This document shows positions 14,432 through 34,298 of a stretch of DNA of 64,000 nt, one piece after another. The first letter of the stretch is position 1. Each line of letters starts with the position of its first letter. A program made the position numbers and the translations under genes. The DNA comes from Trichodelitschia bisporula. Its lineage: Eukaryota. The stretch spans positions 124,001 through 188,000 of the forward strand of contig ML996708.1 in the NCBI GenBank assembly GCA_010356995.1. Direction: 5' to 3'. The notes beneath the pieces are model-generated. The model saw nothing but the letters and a program-made list of their open reading frames with translations. It had not been told where the DNA came from and ran no database searches.

Positions 14432-16072
14432 ATGGCTGGGCCTATCCCACGCATCGCAATCCTAGGCGCCGGCTCCCGTGGCCGCGCCTACGCCCGCGCT
14501 CTCGCCGGCACACAAAGCACCATCATCGCCATCGCCGAGCCGCACGCCTTCAAGCGGTCCACCTTCGTGTCGAATTTCATCCGCGGGGAGCGCTGCGACC
14601 CCACCGTGCCGGGCGAAGCCTTCGCCAGCTGGGAAGACCTAGTCGCGTACGAAACCACCCTACGCTCGAAACTCGCCGCCGGGGAAGAAGTGGATCGTGC
14701 GCCAGCGGATGCGTTCATCGTGTGCGTGCTAGACGAGCAGCACCCGGCAGTAGTTAAAGCTCTAGCACCGCTCGCCGCGCATGTGCTGTGCGAGAAACCC
14801 CTCGCGCCGAGCCTGGGTGCTTGTTTGGGGATGTATGCGGACGTGGTGCGTGGATGGAAGGATGCCGGGCGCGAGGGGGTGTTTGGGATTTGTCATGTGC
14901 TGCGGTACAGTCCGCATAATATGTTGCTGAGGAGGTTGGTAAGGGAGGAGAGTGTTGTTGGGGGGGTGGTGAGCGTGGAGCATACTGAGCCCGTGGGGTG
15001 GTGGCATTTTGCGCATAGTTATGTGCGGTGGGTCGCGTTTCCCCTTCTTACCATATAAGTCGCTGACACTCCTGCTAGGGGGAACTGGCGGAGGGAAGAC
15101 ACGTCCGCGCCAACGCTGCTTACGAAGAGTTGTCATGACATTGACTTCTTGCTTTGGCTGCTGGCCACGCCGCCGAGCGACACGCCGGATGCGAAGCCCC
15201 ATTTACCTGCTACGGTCACGAGCTCGGGAACACTGACCCTGCATCGCCGGGCTAGAAAACCGCGCGGGGCGGGGGAGGCGACGAATTGCCTCTCCTGTCC
15301 CGTGGAGCCTACGTGCATCCACAGCGCGAAGAAGGTGTATGTGGAGCGGCATCTGCGCGGCGGAAACACGGGGTGGCCGGTGAGCATCGTTGTTCCTGAG
15401 ATCGAGGACGTGCGCCGGTCTTCTGGCCCCGAAGCCGCGGAGCAACGGCTCTTGGAGGTGTTGGGGGAGGATTATGGCCCCGAGACAGGGGATGAGAAAG
15501 TGAAGGGGCGGAATTGGTTTGGGCGGTGCGTGTTCGAGGCGGATAATGATGTGTGCGATGACCAGACCGTTGTTCTGGCGTGGGAGGATGGGGAGGGGGT
15601 GGAGGAGATGGGTGTGGGGGGGGAGGATGATCCGCTGGGCTGGCGGGCGGCGAAGACGGCGGTTTTTCATATGGCGGCGCAGAGTGAGGCGGTTTGTGAG
15701 AGGAGGGGGAGGGTGTATGGCACAAGGGGGGAGGTGGTGTATGACTCCACGACTATTGCCGTGACGGATTTCCGCACGGGCGAGACGAAGACGTATAAGC
15801 CCGAGGCTGCGGCGGGAGGGCATGGAGGGGGTGATGCGGGACTGGCGGGGAATTTTGTCAGTGCGGTGAGGGCGGCGATGGGCGGCCGCCCGGCGAGGGA
15901 GGCGCAGAGGGAGTGGCTTGGGTGTAGTCTTGAGGAGGTGGTTAGGAGTCATGCGCTTGTTTTTGCGGCGGAGGAGGCGAGGGTTGAGGGGGGAGTTGTA
16001 AGGTGGGGGGAGTGGTGGGGGAGGGAGGTTGAGGGACGGCTGAGGGATATGGGTGTTGAGGGGGGGTTTTGA
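14432..16072 (+). CDS. Gfo/Idh/MocA-family NAD(P)-dependent oxidoreductase; intron 15028-15078
   Basis: IAILGAGSRGRAY Rossmann motif, VLCEKPLA, HVLRYSPHN, spliced HSYVR|GNWRRE, LLTKSCHDID and GGHGGGD. Confidence 0.92.
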
Positions 16073-16732
16073 GGTTGATAAGGATTTATGGGCAAGACTG
16101 GAGTGATATGGCACTGCTATGAATGAATGAGGGCTCGTAATTGAGGACACGAGGAAGATGAACGGATTGGAAGGTATTATATCTAGGTTCAAGCCAGTCG
16201 AATGGGCGTGATATCATGAAGGACTAGAGTACAGACCCAAAGAGGCCGGTAGCGCTCCTACAGACTGTCCAACCGCTGTCAGGGAGGAGCGAGGCCATGT
16301 CTTCTTTTGTCCCTTAGCTAAGCGGTGCTAGATCGGCTCCATTCTCAGTATTAGTACAGGAACTTCCCATTTCTCTTCAGGGCCGTCTCTCTCGTCCCTC
16401 GGAGCTCCGATATAGATCTCTTCCCACATCATACATGTCCGATGCTCACTCTTCTCAAGACAACGCGCAAACTCATTCTGGAGTAGGAAACACATCATTG
16501 AAGCTTGATCTCACACTAGTTCTAAAGGCCGTTCACTTCATATCGCCCTCCTCATCATCGGCTTGCCGGTGCGTCCGAGCCAAGCAGAGCTCTGCAGTCG
16601 CCATCCATTCAATGACGGATCCCCGTGATGTCTCCACGGTCGAAGAAGCATCATTCAGTGAGGAAGACTCCGCGGCACCCATTTACCCGACCGCGCCCAG
16701 CTCTTCAGCCACAACACCCAGCAAGCCGTGTC

Positions 16733-19001
16733 TCACTCGCACACATACTTCCATCCGTCAACCGTCTTCTCCAGCGTCACAACCGTCCCCGTCGCTACGA
16801 GTTCCAGCTCCGCCAGGCTCCAGACCGGCCCGCCAAGGTTCTGCCCCTGACCGGCGTACAGGAGCGGCAGGATATCCGACTTCCAAAGTGGCTGGTCGCG
16901 GTATCTGACTCTAACTGACTGCACGGCCACCGTGCACAGCAACACCGCCCCCAACAGTAGCAGCGTCGCCGGCATCGCCAGCCACCATGGAGCAAACTCG
17001 GTGCAAATGGCCGTTTGGAACGCCCTGCCCACTACCACCTCGCTCTTGTTCGTGTGCTTGTCCACGCCAAGGAGACGGAGCTGCGTCGTCACTGCATCCG
17101 CCACGGCCCCCATAGTACTAGAAATGCTCCCGTACGTCGCGTTCCCGGAGTTGAACATGCCCGTCAGCCACCATAGGTGTTCCGATATTGAGTCGGGCGG
17201 GGGGCCTGTGCACGAGACCGATTCTCGGCTGACGGGCTCAAGAAGGTTCTGGGGAATGTGGCATGTGCCGTTGAGCATGGTTTCGAGGAAGCTTGCGATG
17301 GTGTTGTCAAAAAAGTCCCGGATGATGTTGATACAGTTCATGGGCACCACCGTTGTGAGGCCGTCAGGGAAGTGCGCGGTAAAGGTATCGTTGCCGTAAG
17401 TTAGGGTTTCCGCTTTCCAAAGTTCAACGCGGCTTCCGTGGATGTGGCACGTAGTGTTGAGCCCGGCAACGCCAACGCCGTACTTAGTTTCTTCGATGTA
17501 CCATGGGGCAGGGACGTCGGCCAGCACATTTTCAACGAGATTGCCGTTTTCGACTGTGGCGTTGTAGTACCGGGTGCATGGGTAGAACACGCATGTGGAC
17601 GCAACATACCTAAAGTCAAGTATGGGGGTATGGTCTTCGGGGCCCAAGTCGTACCCACAATCCCACTCCCCGCCTGAACGACCCGCGCAGCCAACAGACG
17701 TACTCGTCAGCATCGTCCACTTGATAATGGACGGCCCTTTTGAGACGGCTTTGAGCCGGGCCGGCGCTGTAGGCAGCCATGGTAGCCATTCCAGCGAGTC
17801 ATCGAATTGGACTACAATGCTGGGTGCGGACAGGTTAGGCCCGGATATGACGGGGATGTGCAACCCATTTGGCAGCTTCGGAATCTTTGTAGTCACGTTT
17901 CCGGCATCTGACACTGCCCACGCGGGTACCCACTCTATCAGGTTGGTTGCATCGATGCATTGAGTGCATACTCCAATCGTGGAGTAGGCGACGCCGTTTC
18001 CGTTCCCAAAAGTGCAGTTTCCGGTAGCGCAACCGTCAAGGACCTGCGCCGTGCCTTTCGCGCTTGATGTATAGCCGGAACTAGTGTTGAGAGGAGAATT
18101 TGCTATGGCATCGAGAATGGCACTTGCGCCCACGCTGTCGAGATTGTAATCTGTCTCGAGGTCGACGGTATCGGGAATTGAGTTGGCAATGCGAATGGTT
18201 GGGTGCAAGTGGGAGAGGGGCTTTTGGCAGTTGACCGAGTGGAGGGCCTGCTGGGAGAAGGGGCCGATGGCAAGGGAGAGGATTGTGATTAAGCCTCCCA
18301 GATGAGCGACGGACCTGGACCGTTAACCTTCGCGACACGACTGATTGGAATACGCACAGCGAGCGGAGACGAAAGAAGAGAAAGAGCGACCCTAACGGCC
18401 CGCGGCTGGCAGCGTCGAACAGAGACAAATGCTGAAGGGGTCGCGGATCACAGTGCCAGTACCATTTCAGCTGGCTGATTGCTAGTCTCGGTCAGCCCTG
18501 GACGAGCGTTGAGCAACTCGATGGGGACACACCTGCTTCGACGGCGGTGCTCAAGCACATTCGCAGAAGAGTAGACATCACCGCAATGATTGTAGACAGA
18601 TTGATGCTATATCGCCACGACGGTTGTCTCTTGCCGTTGTAGACTGCCAGAATGGTGGAGATGGCGGACAACAGCGCAATGGCAATGAGAAGCGAGAGCC
18701 CTTCAAGCCACCATCCCTGCAGGGCAGTTCGTTTCTCACTTTTGACGCTCGGTGCCGACTCGATGGTAGCCGATGCTGCCGGGGGGTGCAAGTCGACAGA
18801 GAACTGGCGTAACTCGAACACGTCGCCCGCTCTGTTTCCCGAATGTAAAGCGGCCGGGGTTGTTTGTGGACAAAGCGGACGTGATGATGTCTGATGCTGT
18901 TCATGAACGGTACCGTTGTCTTCGCCTTCGCTCAGTCCTGATACAGGCGATCCGGCCCTGACCTCGCCGTGTTCCGCGTGACCGTGCCGACACCTCTCCA
19001 T
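16733..19001 (-). CDS. DUF3176-like fungal membrane protein (intact copy); introns 18482-18532 and 18315-18357
   Basis: WWLEGLSL...SINLSTIIAV, AISQLKW, FDAASRGPLGS, AIGPFSQQA, C-x-TGNCTF...YSTIGVC, and C-terminal WWLAMPA-TM-PLWKS motifs typical of this family. The start codon is uncertain. Confidence 0.85.
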
Positions 19002-19303
19002 AACAAGCCGAGCGAGCAGAGACGAGGTGGTTCCAAGGCCGACGACTCTGGGTTCGTGAAGGTGAGGGAAAGCTAGGGAAAAGAGAAGGCGGACTCTAGG
19101 ATGTGATCAGGCTGGAGGCACGAGGTCGGAACCCGCCAAGCCAGCTGAGCCTCACAGCTCCGCCTTGTTTGCACAGCCAGTAATACACGATTCGGGAACA
19201 GTCAATTATTGTTTGTCTGTATAGATATTCATCCTGCAGTGACTGGGTGTATACCGTCATTGCTCGGTCTGACAATTATGGACGAGGCTGAAACGGGACG
19301 ATG

Positions 19304-19511
19304 TCATGGGCCAGGCCAAGGGCTAGGTAAAAAAGTCGTGTCACCACTCTGGTGGCTGTTGTTAGATGCCACCGACGAATGCTTACCACGACTTTTTCAC
19401 CTAGCCCTTGGCCGTTAGGACCCTTAGGGTGGTGTCCCTGGCGTACCAGATGAATGCTTGGCAAAGGATCCTAACAGGGCCCTGATACCTGCACGGATGT
19501 TTGGCCCGTGA
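19304..19511. repeat. Nested inverted-repeat / multi-hairpin element
   Basis: 27-bp inverted repeat 19314-19340/19387-19413 (1 mismatch); 12-bp inverted repeat 19414-19425/19464-19475 (1 mismatch); closing pair 19304-19313/19502-19511. Confidence 0.85.
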
Positions 19512-20596
19512 TTATGATAATGACTGATGCGGTCGGGATGGGATGACTGGATGACGCTTCGCTTCGCTACGATATAATGTTTTGGGATGGGTTGGGCCGC
19601 TTGTTCGGTTGAATTGATGAGTGCTCTGCTCTATTCTGGCGGCGTGTACTCCGTAGTGTTCTCGTTAACCATCGGTCCAGGTTCGCGGAGCCGCTCGGCC
19701 ACGGTCCGTTCCGTGGCTGGTCGGATCGGGATACCATTCGGCCGGATCGAAGGTCCAAAGGCTGGTACAAGAATTCGTTGCCGTGCCCCCTCTCCAAATT
19801 TGGTCGGGAGGGCGGCAACTAATGTGGTTATGGAAGAAGCCTTCTTATGTAAGCAGGGACGTGATGTAATACGAGTATGATAGAAAGGAAGGAGCAAAGG
19901 AGTATACTTGGCATCGTGTATTTATACCTCGAGAGTCTCTAACTCTCTGACTCTCCTTGTCTTTCATTCAACTCTTTCCCAATAACCATATTGTATACAC
20001 GTGCCGTGAACCTGTCTCTACATCAGTAACCACCTTTTGTACCAGCCCTTGGTCTCTGGTCTCCCATGGCAGTGTTCGCATAGCCCTGTGATATGCACGG
20101 CGATACTTCAGCTTCGTCGCATTCTCGAGTCTCTCTGCAGTGCAACATTGGCTCCGAGACCGCATCTGCGAGAGCTCAAGCATCTATTCGGCTCTCTGAG
20201 CCAAGAGGCGCACAACGTACAGCCCGTCGACGTGGCGGGCCCATGCGCAGTACGTCTCTCCTCACTGCCCTGGATGGCAGCCCTCATCCGGGGTGGCGCT
20301 CAGCTGAATCAACGGCAAGCCTGCGGTGGGCGGCAGACACTTCTTCAATCAGCACGTGAGGCTCATGCTAAGTGAAAAAGTGTCTGTCCACCGCAGCCTT
20401 GCCCAAGCTCTGGTACCGCCGGTTCTTATCTCCCCGCAGCTCCGCCTCTATGTAGTCTCGCAGCCACTTGGTTAATGGCTGTGAGGCAGACGCGGGGTAT
20501 GGCGGTTTGGGGGACCGTGGGACGGATACAAGATGGAGACGGCCGCACTTCTGACTTGGAAGCACTTCAGTCGCATGGTTTTGTCGCCTTGCTGAA

Positions 20597-22713
20597 ATGA
20601 CGAAATATCAACACGTTGCTGCGGACGAAGAGAGCGTCGGAGATCAAGCGACCGTCGTGCACACTAGACCCAGCGATAGAGAGGATGACGGACCTCGTGT
20701 CGCCGTGCACACTCGACCCGAACACCACGAACACTGAAACGGCACCGAACCGCGAGTGCCCCTGCATACTAGACCCAGAGATGGAGAGGATCCTGGATCT
20801 CAACCGAACATGCACACTGAAGCCGACGGCGAAGCCAAACTCGAGCTCCCAGCATTTCGCCCCGCGCTGGTGCCAACAAGCCCGATCGTCCTAGCGATGG
20901 AGTCGGATCTCTCCCTAGGACATACCGGGCAGGACTCGGCCAAGGGTTCGACCAAGACATTGCACTCCTTGAAAGGATGGTGGACGCAAGCTGGTGCTCT
21001 TCTTGTCAGCTTCAATTTGCTGGCTGTCATAATCAGCCTTCTGATGAAGTACAATCACGAATTGCAGCCGCAGTGGAAGTACAGCATCAACTTGAACACG
21101 GCGGCTGCCGCGCTATCGACAATTATCCGAGCATGCTTGGTCTCGGTTGTCGATGAAGGTCAGTCCGTTCTCATTCCTTCAGTACATACTGAATAAGAGC
21201 AGTAATTAGTCAACTAAAATGGTACAGGCACCGCCAGCCTCCACCGCTTCAACACATCTCGTACTTTGATAGTGCCAGCCGTGGGGTATGGGGTGCAGTG
21301 CTGTTCCCCTTTCGTATCCGGTCACTGTAAGTGCCCTTCCGAACGCAATCATAGACTAATCCTACAGTTCTTTTGCTCAAATTGAATGCTTTCTTACTGT
21401 CGCTTCGTTTGCTATCGGGCCGTTTACGCAACAAGCTATTCGCTCAGTCCCTTGTTCAAGACCTGCTCCAGATATGTGCCCCTTCTTGCCGGTTGCGAGT
21501 AATATCATGCGGTCGCGGGAAATAATTACTGATGAAGCCACTGGGTTTTCTATTGATGCCCCAAGCAAAGGTGCCATCCTCAGTGCTATGGTAAACCCGC
21601 CTTGGAACCAATCCGTTCACCTTCTCGGCGACTGTGGAACCGGGAACTGTACTTTCCCAGAAGCGGATGGCATTACACATTCTACGCTTGGGATGTGCAC
21701 TAAGTGCGTGGATACAACGAGCTTGCTGAGGAGGCTCAATGAAGTCTATGCCGACAATACGGTACTCCTTACCGTGGGTCTACAGGATATCGGACTGCTA
21801 GTCCAGCCCTTCTTTGACCAGGGCCAGGCAAGCGCTTTCTTTTACTCTTTGGATTGGATGCTGCACATGGCCGACGACGGATTCAAAGAAACTGTTTCTA
21901 ATTCAATTGCAAATTGGTCAGTCGTCACATCTTCACTTAAAGGATGCCAAGTGGAGAGCACCGACCCCGACGTTAAGTATCCATACCACTAGAATTGTGG
22001 CTCTCATGGGCAAAATGCGACGTACGAGGACCAGTGGAGCCAATTTATACCCTACAAGTATATCTCCACAACCTGCACAATTTACCCATGTACGAGGCAC
22101 TACATCAATGCGATGTGTTCGTACCTTTCTCGGGTTCTCCCAGGCACCTGCCAGATGCACAACGTGTCCCAGACCAACTATACTTCGGCTGCTGACACCC
22201 GCTCCTACCGCAATTTTTCGGATTGCTCTACAGGCCAGATTAGGGAGGCGTGGTGGCTCCCTGGCTTCTACAACAGCGGGAGCGCAACTCACGAGACCAT
22301 TTCACGCACGCTCAGCAACATGGCCGACGCGATGGCGGCGTGCATGCGAGTGGCTGGCAGCAAATTCGACGAGAGCAGCAAAGTCGGCGTGGGCAGTGGC
22401 CGGGTGTATGGCACAGCCTTGGAGACGACCATATGCACGGAGTTCAATCCCTGGTGGATGGCCATGCCGGCTGGGGCGCTCGTGCTGGGGAGCGTGTTCC
22501 TGGCCGTCGCGGTGGCGCAGGCGATGCGCGCGGAGCAGCCGCTGTGGAAGTCGTCGGTCCTGCCGCTTGTGTTTGCGGGCGGACTGGGGCCGGCGGGGGA
22601 TCTGGACGAGCTGGAGGCGGTTGGCCAAGGGGGTGGATGTGCAGCTGGTGCGGGCGGGGGAGGGGTGGGAGTTTGTGGACGGGGCGCGGGTTGGACGGGC
22701 CGAGCCCGCTTAG
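20597..22713 (+). pseudogene. Disabled DUF3176-like paralog; introns 21159-21202 and 21327-21367 at the same positions as in the intact copy
   Basis: Same motifs (SINLNT, ISQLKW, FDSASRG, AIGPFTQQA, CGTGNCTF, WWMAMPA, PLWKSS). Lesions: in-frame TGA 20735-20737, TAG 21990-21992, a large in-frame deletion after PCTRHY, and a frameshift near 22620. Confidence 0.85.
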
Positions 22714-23347
22714 GTTCGTGCTGAGTACGCTGTTGGTGGGCTATTTGAGGTGTAGACGCTGGTGTTTAATGAACAATTTCTTGGGAAAGGTGGCTTCCAT
22801 TGGGTGCAGTCTAGTGAAAGAAGTGTAGGAGGAAAGCAATTGGGATAGTCCTGAATGTCGTTTTTGATCGTGGGCAAGGCATCGGCGCCATACGATCCGC
22901 CAAATGGACGGAGAGAGTCGGTCACACTGCTTTGTACTCGGAGACCACGAGACGGGATGGTAGATGAGTGTCCAGATCTACTGTGCCTCTTCACAAACGG
23001 TTAATGGAGCATGCGATGCTGCTGGGTTGATATCGAAGCCCCGTCTATCCTTTCTGTTACCGGTACCATGGACATGGATTTCACGGCCCTTGGTTTACTA
23101 CCATCTCTGGAGACGAAATGTCAACCCTTCTCCGCCTCACCCCGAGAGCGGCGGCTGGGAGCGAGGTCCGCCATGCGCTGAATGGTCTTTGAGTGCATCG
23201 ATTCAGATCTTCTTCTAGCCTTATCTAGCACAACATTAGCATTACACCTCACTTGACGCCATCCCATACCTTCCTGATGTTTGAGTTCCTCCCTTCACAG
23301 CCTTCTTCCAGCGTGATGTATCAACCCCATCATAACCATTCCCACCA

Positions 23348-29845: not shown

Positions 29846-30886
29846 GGTTGGCGGGGTGGTGTGGCGGGAGGTGGTGGTGGTATGGTACATGATTTCGTCA
29901 AAAAAGATGCGAGAGGCGTGAGAGTCGTGAGAGGATGAATGCTTCCAGACTGGCGAAGGCATTAGCGACCAATGGATCGATATCAAGGAGGACCACTCAC
30001 GCAAAGAACGAACGACGATATTAGCGAACGATTAGACGAGGGAGAACCAGCTCCAGATTATGCCTTGTAAATGCCTTTGCACAACAACGAAGGAACTGAG
30101 CCGGTGGATGAGGATGTTTCTCGTGGGCATCCCCGGCCTACTTATCCATCGCCCGTCGGCGCCTCTGCCATCCAAAGAACCCACACCCGCACAGGGGTGT
30201 CGCGATGTTGAGCCCCATCTCGCGCCCATCGACGCGCTGAAACACGCACCTCGCGCCGCACAAAGCGTTACGGTCGGGCGGTAAGTAGCCGGCCAGGCCG
30301 CCGGGGTGGTGTGAGGCTCTCACGAGAATGCATCCGGATTGGGGCTAATAGCGGCCCAAAGGGGAGATGAAACGGCGGTTTCGCAGCACGCTAAATCGGG
30401 AGTTATTTTGTGAGAATTGTCCGAATGAGGGTCATTGGGGGAATGGTTGTAGGGCTAAGACAGAGCCGCCCGGCCTGTCTGTGGGCGCGACGCTGTTGGG
30501 ACGCTGAGAGGGCGGTTGGCGCGCGGGGTGGGAGCCGAAACGTTCATCGCTCCCGAAGGGGGTATTTTTGGGATGTTTTACGGGAAGGCTGACGGCAGAG
30601 GCGTTGAGGGCGCTTGTTTCGAGAGGAACATGGAGAAGCGCTGGGGTGAGAGAAGAAAAGCTGTCAAAGTGGTGCAAGGCGCGTGGTTGGGCCGGGCGGT
30701 TCGTGAGGCGGTGATGCTTGATTGGGTGGTTGGCAAGAGGTCAACAGTCATACTCGCGTCTGGCCCGCTCTGCTAGAGTTGTAGGTGAAGCTGAAACGAG
30801 CGATGTGGATGAAACTCTACACTCTAGATGTCAAGAGACCAATTCGCGGTGAGAGATGGCCTGCACGGCGGTCGAGAAGAACCGTT

Positions 30887-32397: not shown

Positions 32398-34298
32398 ATA
32401 CCCTTTTGATGCTATGTATCCTCCTATGCTCCTTCCTCCCATCATGCACACATTACCATGTTCCTTCCCGAGAGTAACGTGCTCCTTCCCAAGAGTAATA
32501 TGCTTCTTTCCCTTGTCTGCCTCAGATGAGGGGTCAAAGGCTAATCGAAAATGTCATGTCCACCCCAGCGACTCGACCTCTACCAAAATCCGGAGAGAGG
32601 GGGACATAACTTTTTCGGACAGCCGTTAGGTGCGTTGACTGACGGCCTCCCGGACGGGATATCCGCCTTGCTCGCACTCCTGGTCCTTTTGCGAACGACC
32701 TGTTAAAGATCCGGCTGGGATTCGCGTCCAGAATCTTCTCAGATGATGACTCCTTAGTAAAACCTGTGAGGTCATGTATATATAGTAGTGTAGCCGAATC
32801 AGAGGTGGGGAACTGGACGAATTTTCTACGATTTAAATTTCATCCATCAGCAATCGCATCCAAGTGGGGCTGATCAAATCCAAATCGAGCTCGTCATAGC
32901 CTCCACCCATATCTTCTCTTCTGCTCGAGCCCAGCCCACCGCCAGCCGGTCCGATTCAGCATCCATGGCACCGTCCTGAATCCAGAACCAGACACCCGTC
33001 GCAAGAAAAGCCCAGCCTCGCCCAGCCCACACAAATTCGGCCTCAAAACTCTAGGACTACACTGCCGAAATGGAACACCTAACCCTGCCAAAGAAACCTT
33101 AATGTAACCTCAGTGACAGGCGCCTCAAGAGCTCGACTTCCGCTGCTGACTTTATGCAACCCACAACCAGCTCTTCGCGAACCAATGACAATGATACAGA
33201 ATTGATCCATGTAGACTTCACTGCCGTTGCTATGGGCGGCTCGTCATCATTGGAGAAGCGGGCAGCGAATATTGCAACGCCTTCTGCAACACAAAACATG
33301 TTTCTTGGGTTGTTCGTGACATTCCTCGGCTGCACAGAAAACACTCACCGCACAAACCTTAAACAATGATCATCGTGAAGCGGTCAGTTTTTCCCCGCTT
33401 GTGACATGTACCATGTACGCCCAGGCCCATGGAGTCCAAAACGCGGGGATGGGAACGGACGAAGGCTGAATAGCAGTTCGCGCTGGTACAACATGTGCTT
33501 CCAACACAACGTGTGTGCTTTCTTCCTGCCATCACCAGCAGGTAGCGTGCCACGAGCACATCGGATGCCCCGCCTCAGCACACGCACACCCGAAGCGCAC
33601 AAACGGCCACCCTAGCGGGATGTGCCGGCGTGTCCAGCGCAACACACCCCTTCCGCACCGCCATGTTTCGCGATCTGGCGGATCGGACATGACGCCGACA
33701 TCCATGCGGGGCATGCCACATGCGTGCTTCAGCAGGCTTCGTTGCCCTGCTCTGGAACTCTTTTAGCCTCGCGACATTGGTCAAGCGTTCATGGGATGCG
33801 TGTCGGCGCGAAGTTACGCCGCGCGTTCCGCGTCTTCGAGCCCGATGTGACGCAAGTGTACAAAGGCCTTGCCGGCGCAGCGAGAGGCATGCATAACAGT
33901 ATATCCGCGTGCGACGCCGTTAAGGCGCGCCGTGCCCCGCGCTGGATACGAGGCCGAGTCGAGGCGGGAGGTAGCGTGCTGGGGGATACACGCGATGAGA
34001 CGAGAGGTACGGCGCAGGATCGGTGGCGGTAGACGCTTGGCTGGGTCATGCATGACGCTGCGGGGGTGGAGCGAGTACATAATAGCTGCGACGGGCTGCT
34101 GCGCGGGGGCGTTGAATCCGAAGGAGCCTGATGCTTGCGACGCAGAATGTGATCGTTGCGTTTGTCAAATGCTATGTTTTTAGTGATGGTTTAGAACTAG
34201 GGCTTTGAGATCATTGTTTGTTTACCTTGACCACCCCCCCCCCCCCCCCCCCCCTCATCCCCCCCAATCGTCAAGCTTCAAGTCCCCCCAAAGTGACG

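Follow-up and report, generated by a model that had tools for sequence, protein, structure and literature searches.

The intergenic region between two head-to-head DUF3176 genes of Trichodelitschia bisporula contains 208 nucleotides (nt) that can be folded into nested, abutting hairpins, raising the question of whether this structure is a selected RNA, a mobile element, a set of structured introns or a local fold-back. The locus was analysed within a stretch of 64,000 nt (assembly GCA_010356995.1, contig ML996708.1, positions 124,001 to 188,000 of the forward strand), here called the window; its features are listed in Table 1. The stems and motifs described in an earlier note on this DNA were all present at their claimed positions, including the inner stem (GGTGGC/GCCACC) and the pairing of the arms of hairpin A at 26 of 27 positions, and the closing stem of the second hairpin, A2. 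The two outer arms that it had reported also exist, but the stem that they form was absent from the minus strand fold.

Table 1. Features of the window at and around the hairpins (positions in the window; z values are given for the plus/minus strands).
Feature	Position	Strand	Description
DUF3176 gene	16733-19001	-	Spliced; introns 18315-18357 and 18482-18532
Short repeat left of hairpin A	19222-19274		Probable; contains a small hairpin; unexplained summed depth (bin 19168-19389), loose ends at 19222 and 19274
Outer stem	19304-19511	+	10 bp, 19304-19313 with 19502-19511; seen in the plus strand fold only
Hairpin A, repeated unit	19314-19413		27-bp inverted arms 19314-19340 and 19387-19413; 46-nt interior
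Intron-like block in the loop of A	19356-19386	-	31 nt; consensus donor, branch point and acceptor
A2, second hairpin	19414-19475		12-bp closing stem 19414-19425/19464-19475; second copy of the 11-nt motif
Hairpin B, diverged relative of A	19753-20054		Arms 19753-19779 and 20028-20054
High-copy repeat inserted in B	19823-20033	+	211 bp; solo-LTR-like layout (inferred label)
Hairpin C	20314-20403		90-nt rod; z -8.1/-10.4; basal motif and 15-nt word in common with the A arm
DUF3176 paralogue	20597-22724	+	In-frame stops at 20735 and 21990; both introns spliced in RNA contigs
Hairpin E, decayed copy of A	32532-32631		100 nt, as A; gapless alignment to A

The fold was strong, as a check against shuffled sequences proposed in the earlier note confirmed: the stretch 19300-19515 (216 nt) gave z values of -7.8 (plus strand) and -10.5 (minus strand), and 0 of 200 shuffles folded as well on either strand. 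The fold signal of the 208-nt structure stems from hairpin A alone, which reached -9.5 (plus) and -11.8 (minus) by itself, while A2 and the right outer arm (19414-19511) folded weakly (-1.3 with 20 of 200 shuffles as good on the plus strand, and -2.8 with 1 of 200 on the minus strand). The arms of A (96% complementary) were the longest inverted pair in the window among the matches listed, A contained a duplex of at least 21 bp, no open reading frame of at least 120 amino acids overlapped it, and the four best of about 2130 folding windows in a scan of the 64 kb all fell on hairpins A and C.

Copies of A were sought in assembled contigs at 80% identity (window positions 14950-21600). Four runs carried the stretch: X1 and X2, from one DNA sample which may be the source of the window DNA itself, and X3 and X4, also from one sample. 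Other contigs were aligned over the loop of A (7 at 19367 and 4 at 19346, the same in X1 and X2), and by depth matching none of them departed far from the depth of the window's own contig (394-450 vs. 409 in X1), as separate single-copy loci would be expected to behave. Some of these contigs may be halves of one locus, and the close copies were therefore taken as 4-7 loci, an estimate made from contig counts, since summed depth is not a copy number. Hairpin A is a dispersed repeat. The earlier note had held that a single copy, together with a lack of conservation, transcription and small RNAs, would point to a local fold-back accident; the 4-7 other loci with at least 80% identity refuted this for A, and a single accident is scarcely credible as an explanation. 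Its suggestion of a transposon-derived foldback gained support from both close and distant copies. In other collections (with few fungal genomes), a pattern with the exact arms had 0 loci in viral contigs and 3 loci in metagenomes, all unrelated: a long perfect palindrome in bacterial-type DNA, a short terminator-like hairpin and a tandem repeat. Positions 1-3098 of L001, which is bacterial-type DNA, formed a palindrome with arms of about 1.5 kb each, probably an assembly or amplification chimera.

The two longest pieces listed, 19316-19410 (6 differences) and 19318-19411 (16 differences), were located within contigs of 18.7 kb and 26.7 kb; both ended at most 4 nt from the ends of the A arms, and neither entered A2 or the outer stem. 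The extra depth in the bin 19390-19611 was likewise explained by 19390-19411. Since the homologous pieces stop at the arms of A, the unit is narrower than the nested multi-branch structure, and A2 and the outer stem belong to the local sequence outside the element. Ten of the 16 differences of the 19318-19411 copy were attributed to 19346-19372; the conservation of the arms in close copies is inferred by subtraction, as differences at alignment ends seem to be absent from the listing. The inner stem was broken at 2-3 of its 6 pairs in two other copies (by depth matching), and both partners had changed at the pair 19346/19380 in one copy and at 19352/19372 in another.

These boundaries bear on the proposal that the whole 208-nt structure is one selected non-coding RNA or 5'-leader element with interacting hairpins. 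In its favour, the motif which the earlier note saw repeated in both hairpins was present at 19374 and 19449, but the shared 11-mer exceeded chance by a modest margin only (p 0.01, from 3000 shuffles of the loops), with a third copy at 29934. Also in its favour, the linker of A (19342-19350) is complementary to that of A2 (19426-19434) over 9 bp (-13.7 kcal/mol), a loop-to-loop pairing which had a p of 0.097 by shuffling, and an A/A2 pseudoknot was dropped on that account. Against this proposal, the homologous pieces lack A2 and the outer stem, both of which fold weakly. No further copy of A2 was seen at 80% identity, nor any standout match within the 64-kb window. In two Rfam scans at different E-values, 0 of 2 and 0 of 7 matches reached the gathering score (the best, a generic miRNA hairpin, with 31.3 vs. 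67 bits), in line with the earlier note, which had recognised no known snRNA, snoRNA, SRP, RNase P or TPP motif. A tRNA scan gave 0 hits, and hammerhead, H/ACA, C/D, SRP and telomerase RNAs were dropped, their consensus features being missing and the Rfam scan negative. A single multi-branch RNA with a shared motif, as first proposed, is thus very unlikely, only A being repeated while A2 and the outer stem are specific to the locus and weak; the outer stem is probably incidental, and a local fold-back accident is still a plausible account of A2 and the outer stem.

Older relatives of A, of which 2-3 lie within the 64 kb, fall below the threshold of 80% identity. When 4568 windows were compared with the A arm, the arms of hairpin B ranked first and second after the self matches, and B without its 211-bp insert became a 96-nt hairpin in register (z -7.6/-8.8). 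Hairpin E was the best non-self locus for A in the window, with identity concentrated in the arms (19/27 and 17/27, that is 36/54) rather than in the loop (14/46) or the flanks (10/30 and 9/30, background level). Its stem has decayed (z -0.6/-2.7), with 7 of 27 pairs broken and an eighth unpaired cell which corresponds to A's own mismatch; the loop of E, read on the minus strand, was weakly similar to that of A (p 0.047). Hairpin C, a single copy at 80% identity (its bin depth being that of the one contig), is likely to be related to A, judging from the motifs that they share, though the case is weaker than for B or E. A covariance model built from A and E gave 4 matches, confined to those two loci, and recovered neither B nor C. 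The units had similar lengths (100 nt in A and E, 96 nt in B without the insert and 90 nt in C), and A, B and C lie within 1.1 kb.

On balance we lean towards reading hairpin A as a young copy of a family of non-coding foldback repeats of about 94-100 bp, MITE-like and passively co-transcribed. This reading is based on the inverted ends, the constant short non-coding length, the copies of different ages and the homology ending at the arms. The 24-27-bp arms would have served as terminal inverted repeats, the unit would have been moved by a transposase supplied in trans, and the copies would have decayed after insertion; A lies among several other repeats, 5' of a DUF3176 gene, and would be co-transcribed passively, the RNA folding simply as a result of the mirrored arms. 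No TSD was found at the ends of the 27-bp arms of A, as the earlier note had remarked. With the boundaries placed 3 nt inwards, 3-bp direct repeats appeared in 2 of 4 copies (B and E), with A matching at 2 of 3 bases and C having none; these repeats may be an extension of the palindrome. As a TSD and a high copy number (at least 10) were not established, A was kept out of the MITE class proper; the 10-copy rule for MITEs is the one quoted in PMC3227409, and A has 4-7 close copies. The splice-like signals in the loop, the better minus strand folds of A, A2, B and C, and the pairs changed on both sides likewise count against the MITE-like reading. So read, the locus adds another miniature repeat family, as yet uncatalogued, to what is known of a little-studied fungus; this helps annotation and serves as a warning that strong folds in T. 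bisporula often mark repeats.

Other repeats surround the hairpins. The repeat inserted in B was covered at 19903 by 57 and 62 contigs, with alignments beginning at 19822, and it was called solo-LTR-like because it has a pyrimidine run, a TATA-like box, a TG start and a short terminal inverted repeat. The last three features, a size of about 210 bp and many copies are shared with fungal solo LTRs, but the 3' end of the repeat does not close with the A of CA, and a TSD was looked for and not found. This repeat may supply the promoter of the plus strand DUF3176 gene. A diverged second copy was located at 32408-32456, about 75 nt from hairpin E; at both A and E, the A-type hairpin and the high-copy repeat keep the same relative orientation, with the hairpin on the 5' side, and the two are also joined in another DNA contig (19411 to 19884). 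A target preference or a composite element is a possible reason for this pairing. The segment 19222-19274, to the left of A, is probably a further short multi-copy repeat, on weak evidence. A GC-rich branched hairpin (19668-19752; z -3.2 on the plus strand vs. -0.5 on the minus strand) lies directly 5' of B. A tandem repeat scan detected one trivial 8-mer array, and the dinucleotide indices of RIP were close to the window mean.

None of the four runs is recorded as RNA; transcription was followed in X3 and X4, which were judged to be RNA because five GT-AG/CT-AC joints were present in both and in neither X1 nor X2. The RNA contigs were unstranded, with rare forms dropped, and stretches without RNA cover (19366-19387 in the listed X3 pieces, and between 19139 and 19536 in X4) were not counted as evidence. 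Both neighbours were matched to DUF3176, as had been claimed, and the ATG of the minus strand gene (19001) lies 313 nt from hairpin A (about 300 bp in the earlier note). One X3 contig (contig 19) included this gene in spliced form and then continued ungapped to 19365, another (contig 20) ran ungapped over 19388-19925, and the X4 pieces ended at 19139 and covered 19536-19896; sequence similar to A at 19367 was present in six X3 contigs. Hairpin A is partly covered by low-level unspliced RNA.

An annotated T. bisporula protein starting at the ATG at 19001 matched the minus strand DUF3176 gene with 100% identity over 45% of the query. The annotated protein stops at 439 amino acids with a different tail, whereas the last exon (16736-18322, minus strand) is open for 529 codons and is free of introns in the RNA contigs; a truncated annotation is possible. 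The plus strand paralogue is probably a transcribed pseudogene, and short diverged repeats were found in its N-terminal region (20653-20826). Near the end of an oxidoreductase gene, X4 alone showed a 126-nt skip with GT..GG ends (15926-16053).

The earlier note had read back-to-back intron signals on the minus strand of the hairpins, which would make them introner-like, that is, introns of a long 5' UTR that are both structured and mobile. GT..AG pairs are readable on the minus strand at 19400-19325 and 19475-19401, and A is multi-copy and structured, but the repeat (19316-19411 or wider) exceeds any such pair, and 4-7 copies are far from hundreds. The proposed signals stood in part: the donor, branch point and acceptor of the block 19386-19356 all fit the consensus, while 19475-19401 starts with GTTAGG, a poor donor, and the donors were poor in general. 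The donor at 19475 was read through unspliced by X3 contig 20, with more than 31 letters on each side, and contig 19 was unspliced through 19325. No splice junction at 19475, 19401 or 19356 was present among the 9 joints listed. With a unit that is not bounded by GT..AG, and 0 of those joints at the proposed sites, the introner-like reading did not hold up and is now highly improbable.

Selection on RNA is not required by the evidence. All four hairpins (A, A2, B and C) folded better on the minus strand, and a strand bias of G-U pairs was apparent in the folds; it disappeared with a strand-neutral wobble count (8 G-T vs. 9 A-C, p 0.5). Between A and E, 3 pairs had changed on both sides, which was reached by 65 of 500 shuffles, whereas the share of paired cells was reached by 17 of 500. 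Such double changes can also arise from arm-to-arm correction of a DNA palindrome.

These tests weigh on the alternative in which A, B and C would be clustered milRNA/hpRNA-like precursors, perhaps domesticated from the repeat, and a Pol II intergenic transcript would contain 90-100-nt rods to be cut by Dicer into 21-25-nt RNAs from the conserved arms. Several results are in its favour: the rank of A and C in the folding scan, three related rods in 1.1 kb, arms better kept than loops (in E, and in the 19318-19411 copy), A-like sequence in six X3 contigs with partial cover of A itself, and the better minus strand folds in four of four hairpins. The unbiased wobble count argues against it, as do the decay of E, the splitting of B by a 211-bp insertion, and the arms of A, which would yield nearly identical small RNAs. 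When 32 arm 21-mers were scanned against the window for targets, nothing had a penalty below 5.5, and the best (5.5) was hairpin C itself. Moreover, a fungal re-analysis (PMC9757828) excludes loci that overlap a transposable element; A itself is a dispersed repeat and a putative transposable element, and B has another repeat inside it. We regard this alternative as unlikely but not negligible. The MITE-like and small-RNA precursor readings are compatible and can both hold; in plants, hairpins derived from transposable elements can turn into miRNA genes (PMC3086885).

The 31-nt block in the loop suggested a more specific possibility, a splice-gated hairpin: a minus strand transcript would carry this block as an intron, and its removal would leave a 69-nt rod as a Dicer substrate. 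The rod (27 bp with one mismatch, 5 bp and a triloop) reached -58.7 kcal/mol and a z of -15, and splice signals of this kind occurred in 4 of 20000 loop shuffles, the rate in shuffled intergenic DNA being about 2 in 10000 for each 46 nt. Elsewhere in the window the splice pattern, which was written after the sequence had been seen, had just 3 matches (43-44 nt), and it fitted 0 of the 5 introns verified there, which measured 41-51 nt against the 31 nt of the block. The listed differences between copies spared the positions from branch point to acceptor (0/10 vs. 11/25 at the other positions of 19346-19380; Fisher p 0.015, rising to 0.12 without the variable patch), and the most variable patch among the copies was the would-be terminal loop after splicing.

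On the other side, no joint skipping the block was found among the 9 listed, the contigs there being unspliced only. A paralogous RNA contig (35.6 deep in X3 and 16.2 in X4, by depth matching) continued across the acceptor, extending beyond 31 letters in both directions; at A itself no RNA contig bridged the block with more than 31 letters on each side. E holds the 31-nt block in register without splice signals, and the near-perfect rod after removal is partly automatic, as the block belongs to an internal mirror duplication, of which it makes up one unit. The splice-gated hairpin is accordingly improbable, and an equally long shot is its wider form, a dispersed family of splice-gated hairpin RNA genes in which splicing would switch small-RNA output on and B and C would be intron-less members. 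Splicing of the block, if real, would mean that an ascomycete intron of unusually small size gates a hairpin precursor, and would provide a clean fungal case of a transposon becoming a regulated small-RNA gene; a literature search gave nothing clearly on an intron inside a fungal hairpin precursor, nor on a MITE-derived milRNA.

Compared with known systems, A shares with the fungal introner-like elements described in excerpts of PMC3609843 its multiple copies, stable predicted structure and Dothideomycete host, but its unit is not a GT..AG intron, splicing was not seen, and its copies are few vs. the 24-377 near-identical copies given there. Like the fungal mi/milRNA loci treated in part of PMC9757828, A is intergenic, without an Rfam structural hit, and has a long duplex and some transcription, while its repeat origin counts against it and it is known from sequence and RNA contigs only; the top-tier loci have less than 20 nt between the duplexes, vs. 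the 46-nt interior of A, and the spliced form would fit. The MITEs of Epichloe festucae (EFT-25m, EFT-29m and EFT-3mA/Toru, in passages of PMC3227409) differ from A, which has neither a TA/AT nor another clear TSD, has fewer than 10 close copies and carries splice-like loop signals. Size and layout, rather than the EFT consensus sequences, link A to these elements: 80-135 bp with inverted ends of 24-29 bp (EFT-25m, 81 bp, TIR 24; EFT-3mA, 135 bp, TIR 29) and no coding capacity. The Epichloe MITEs are, like A, dispersed and degenerate, often found 5' of genes and sometimes nested with other repeats (same passages of PMC3227409).
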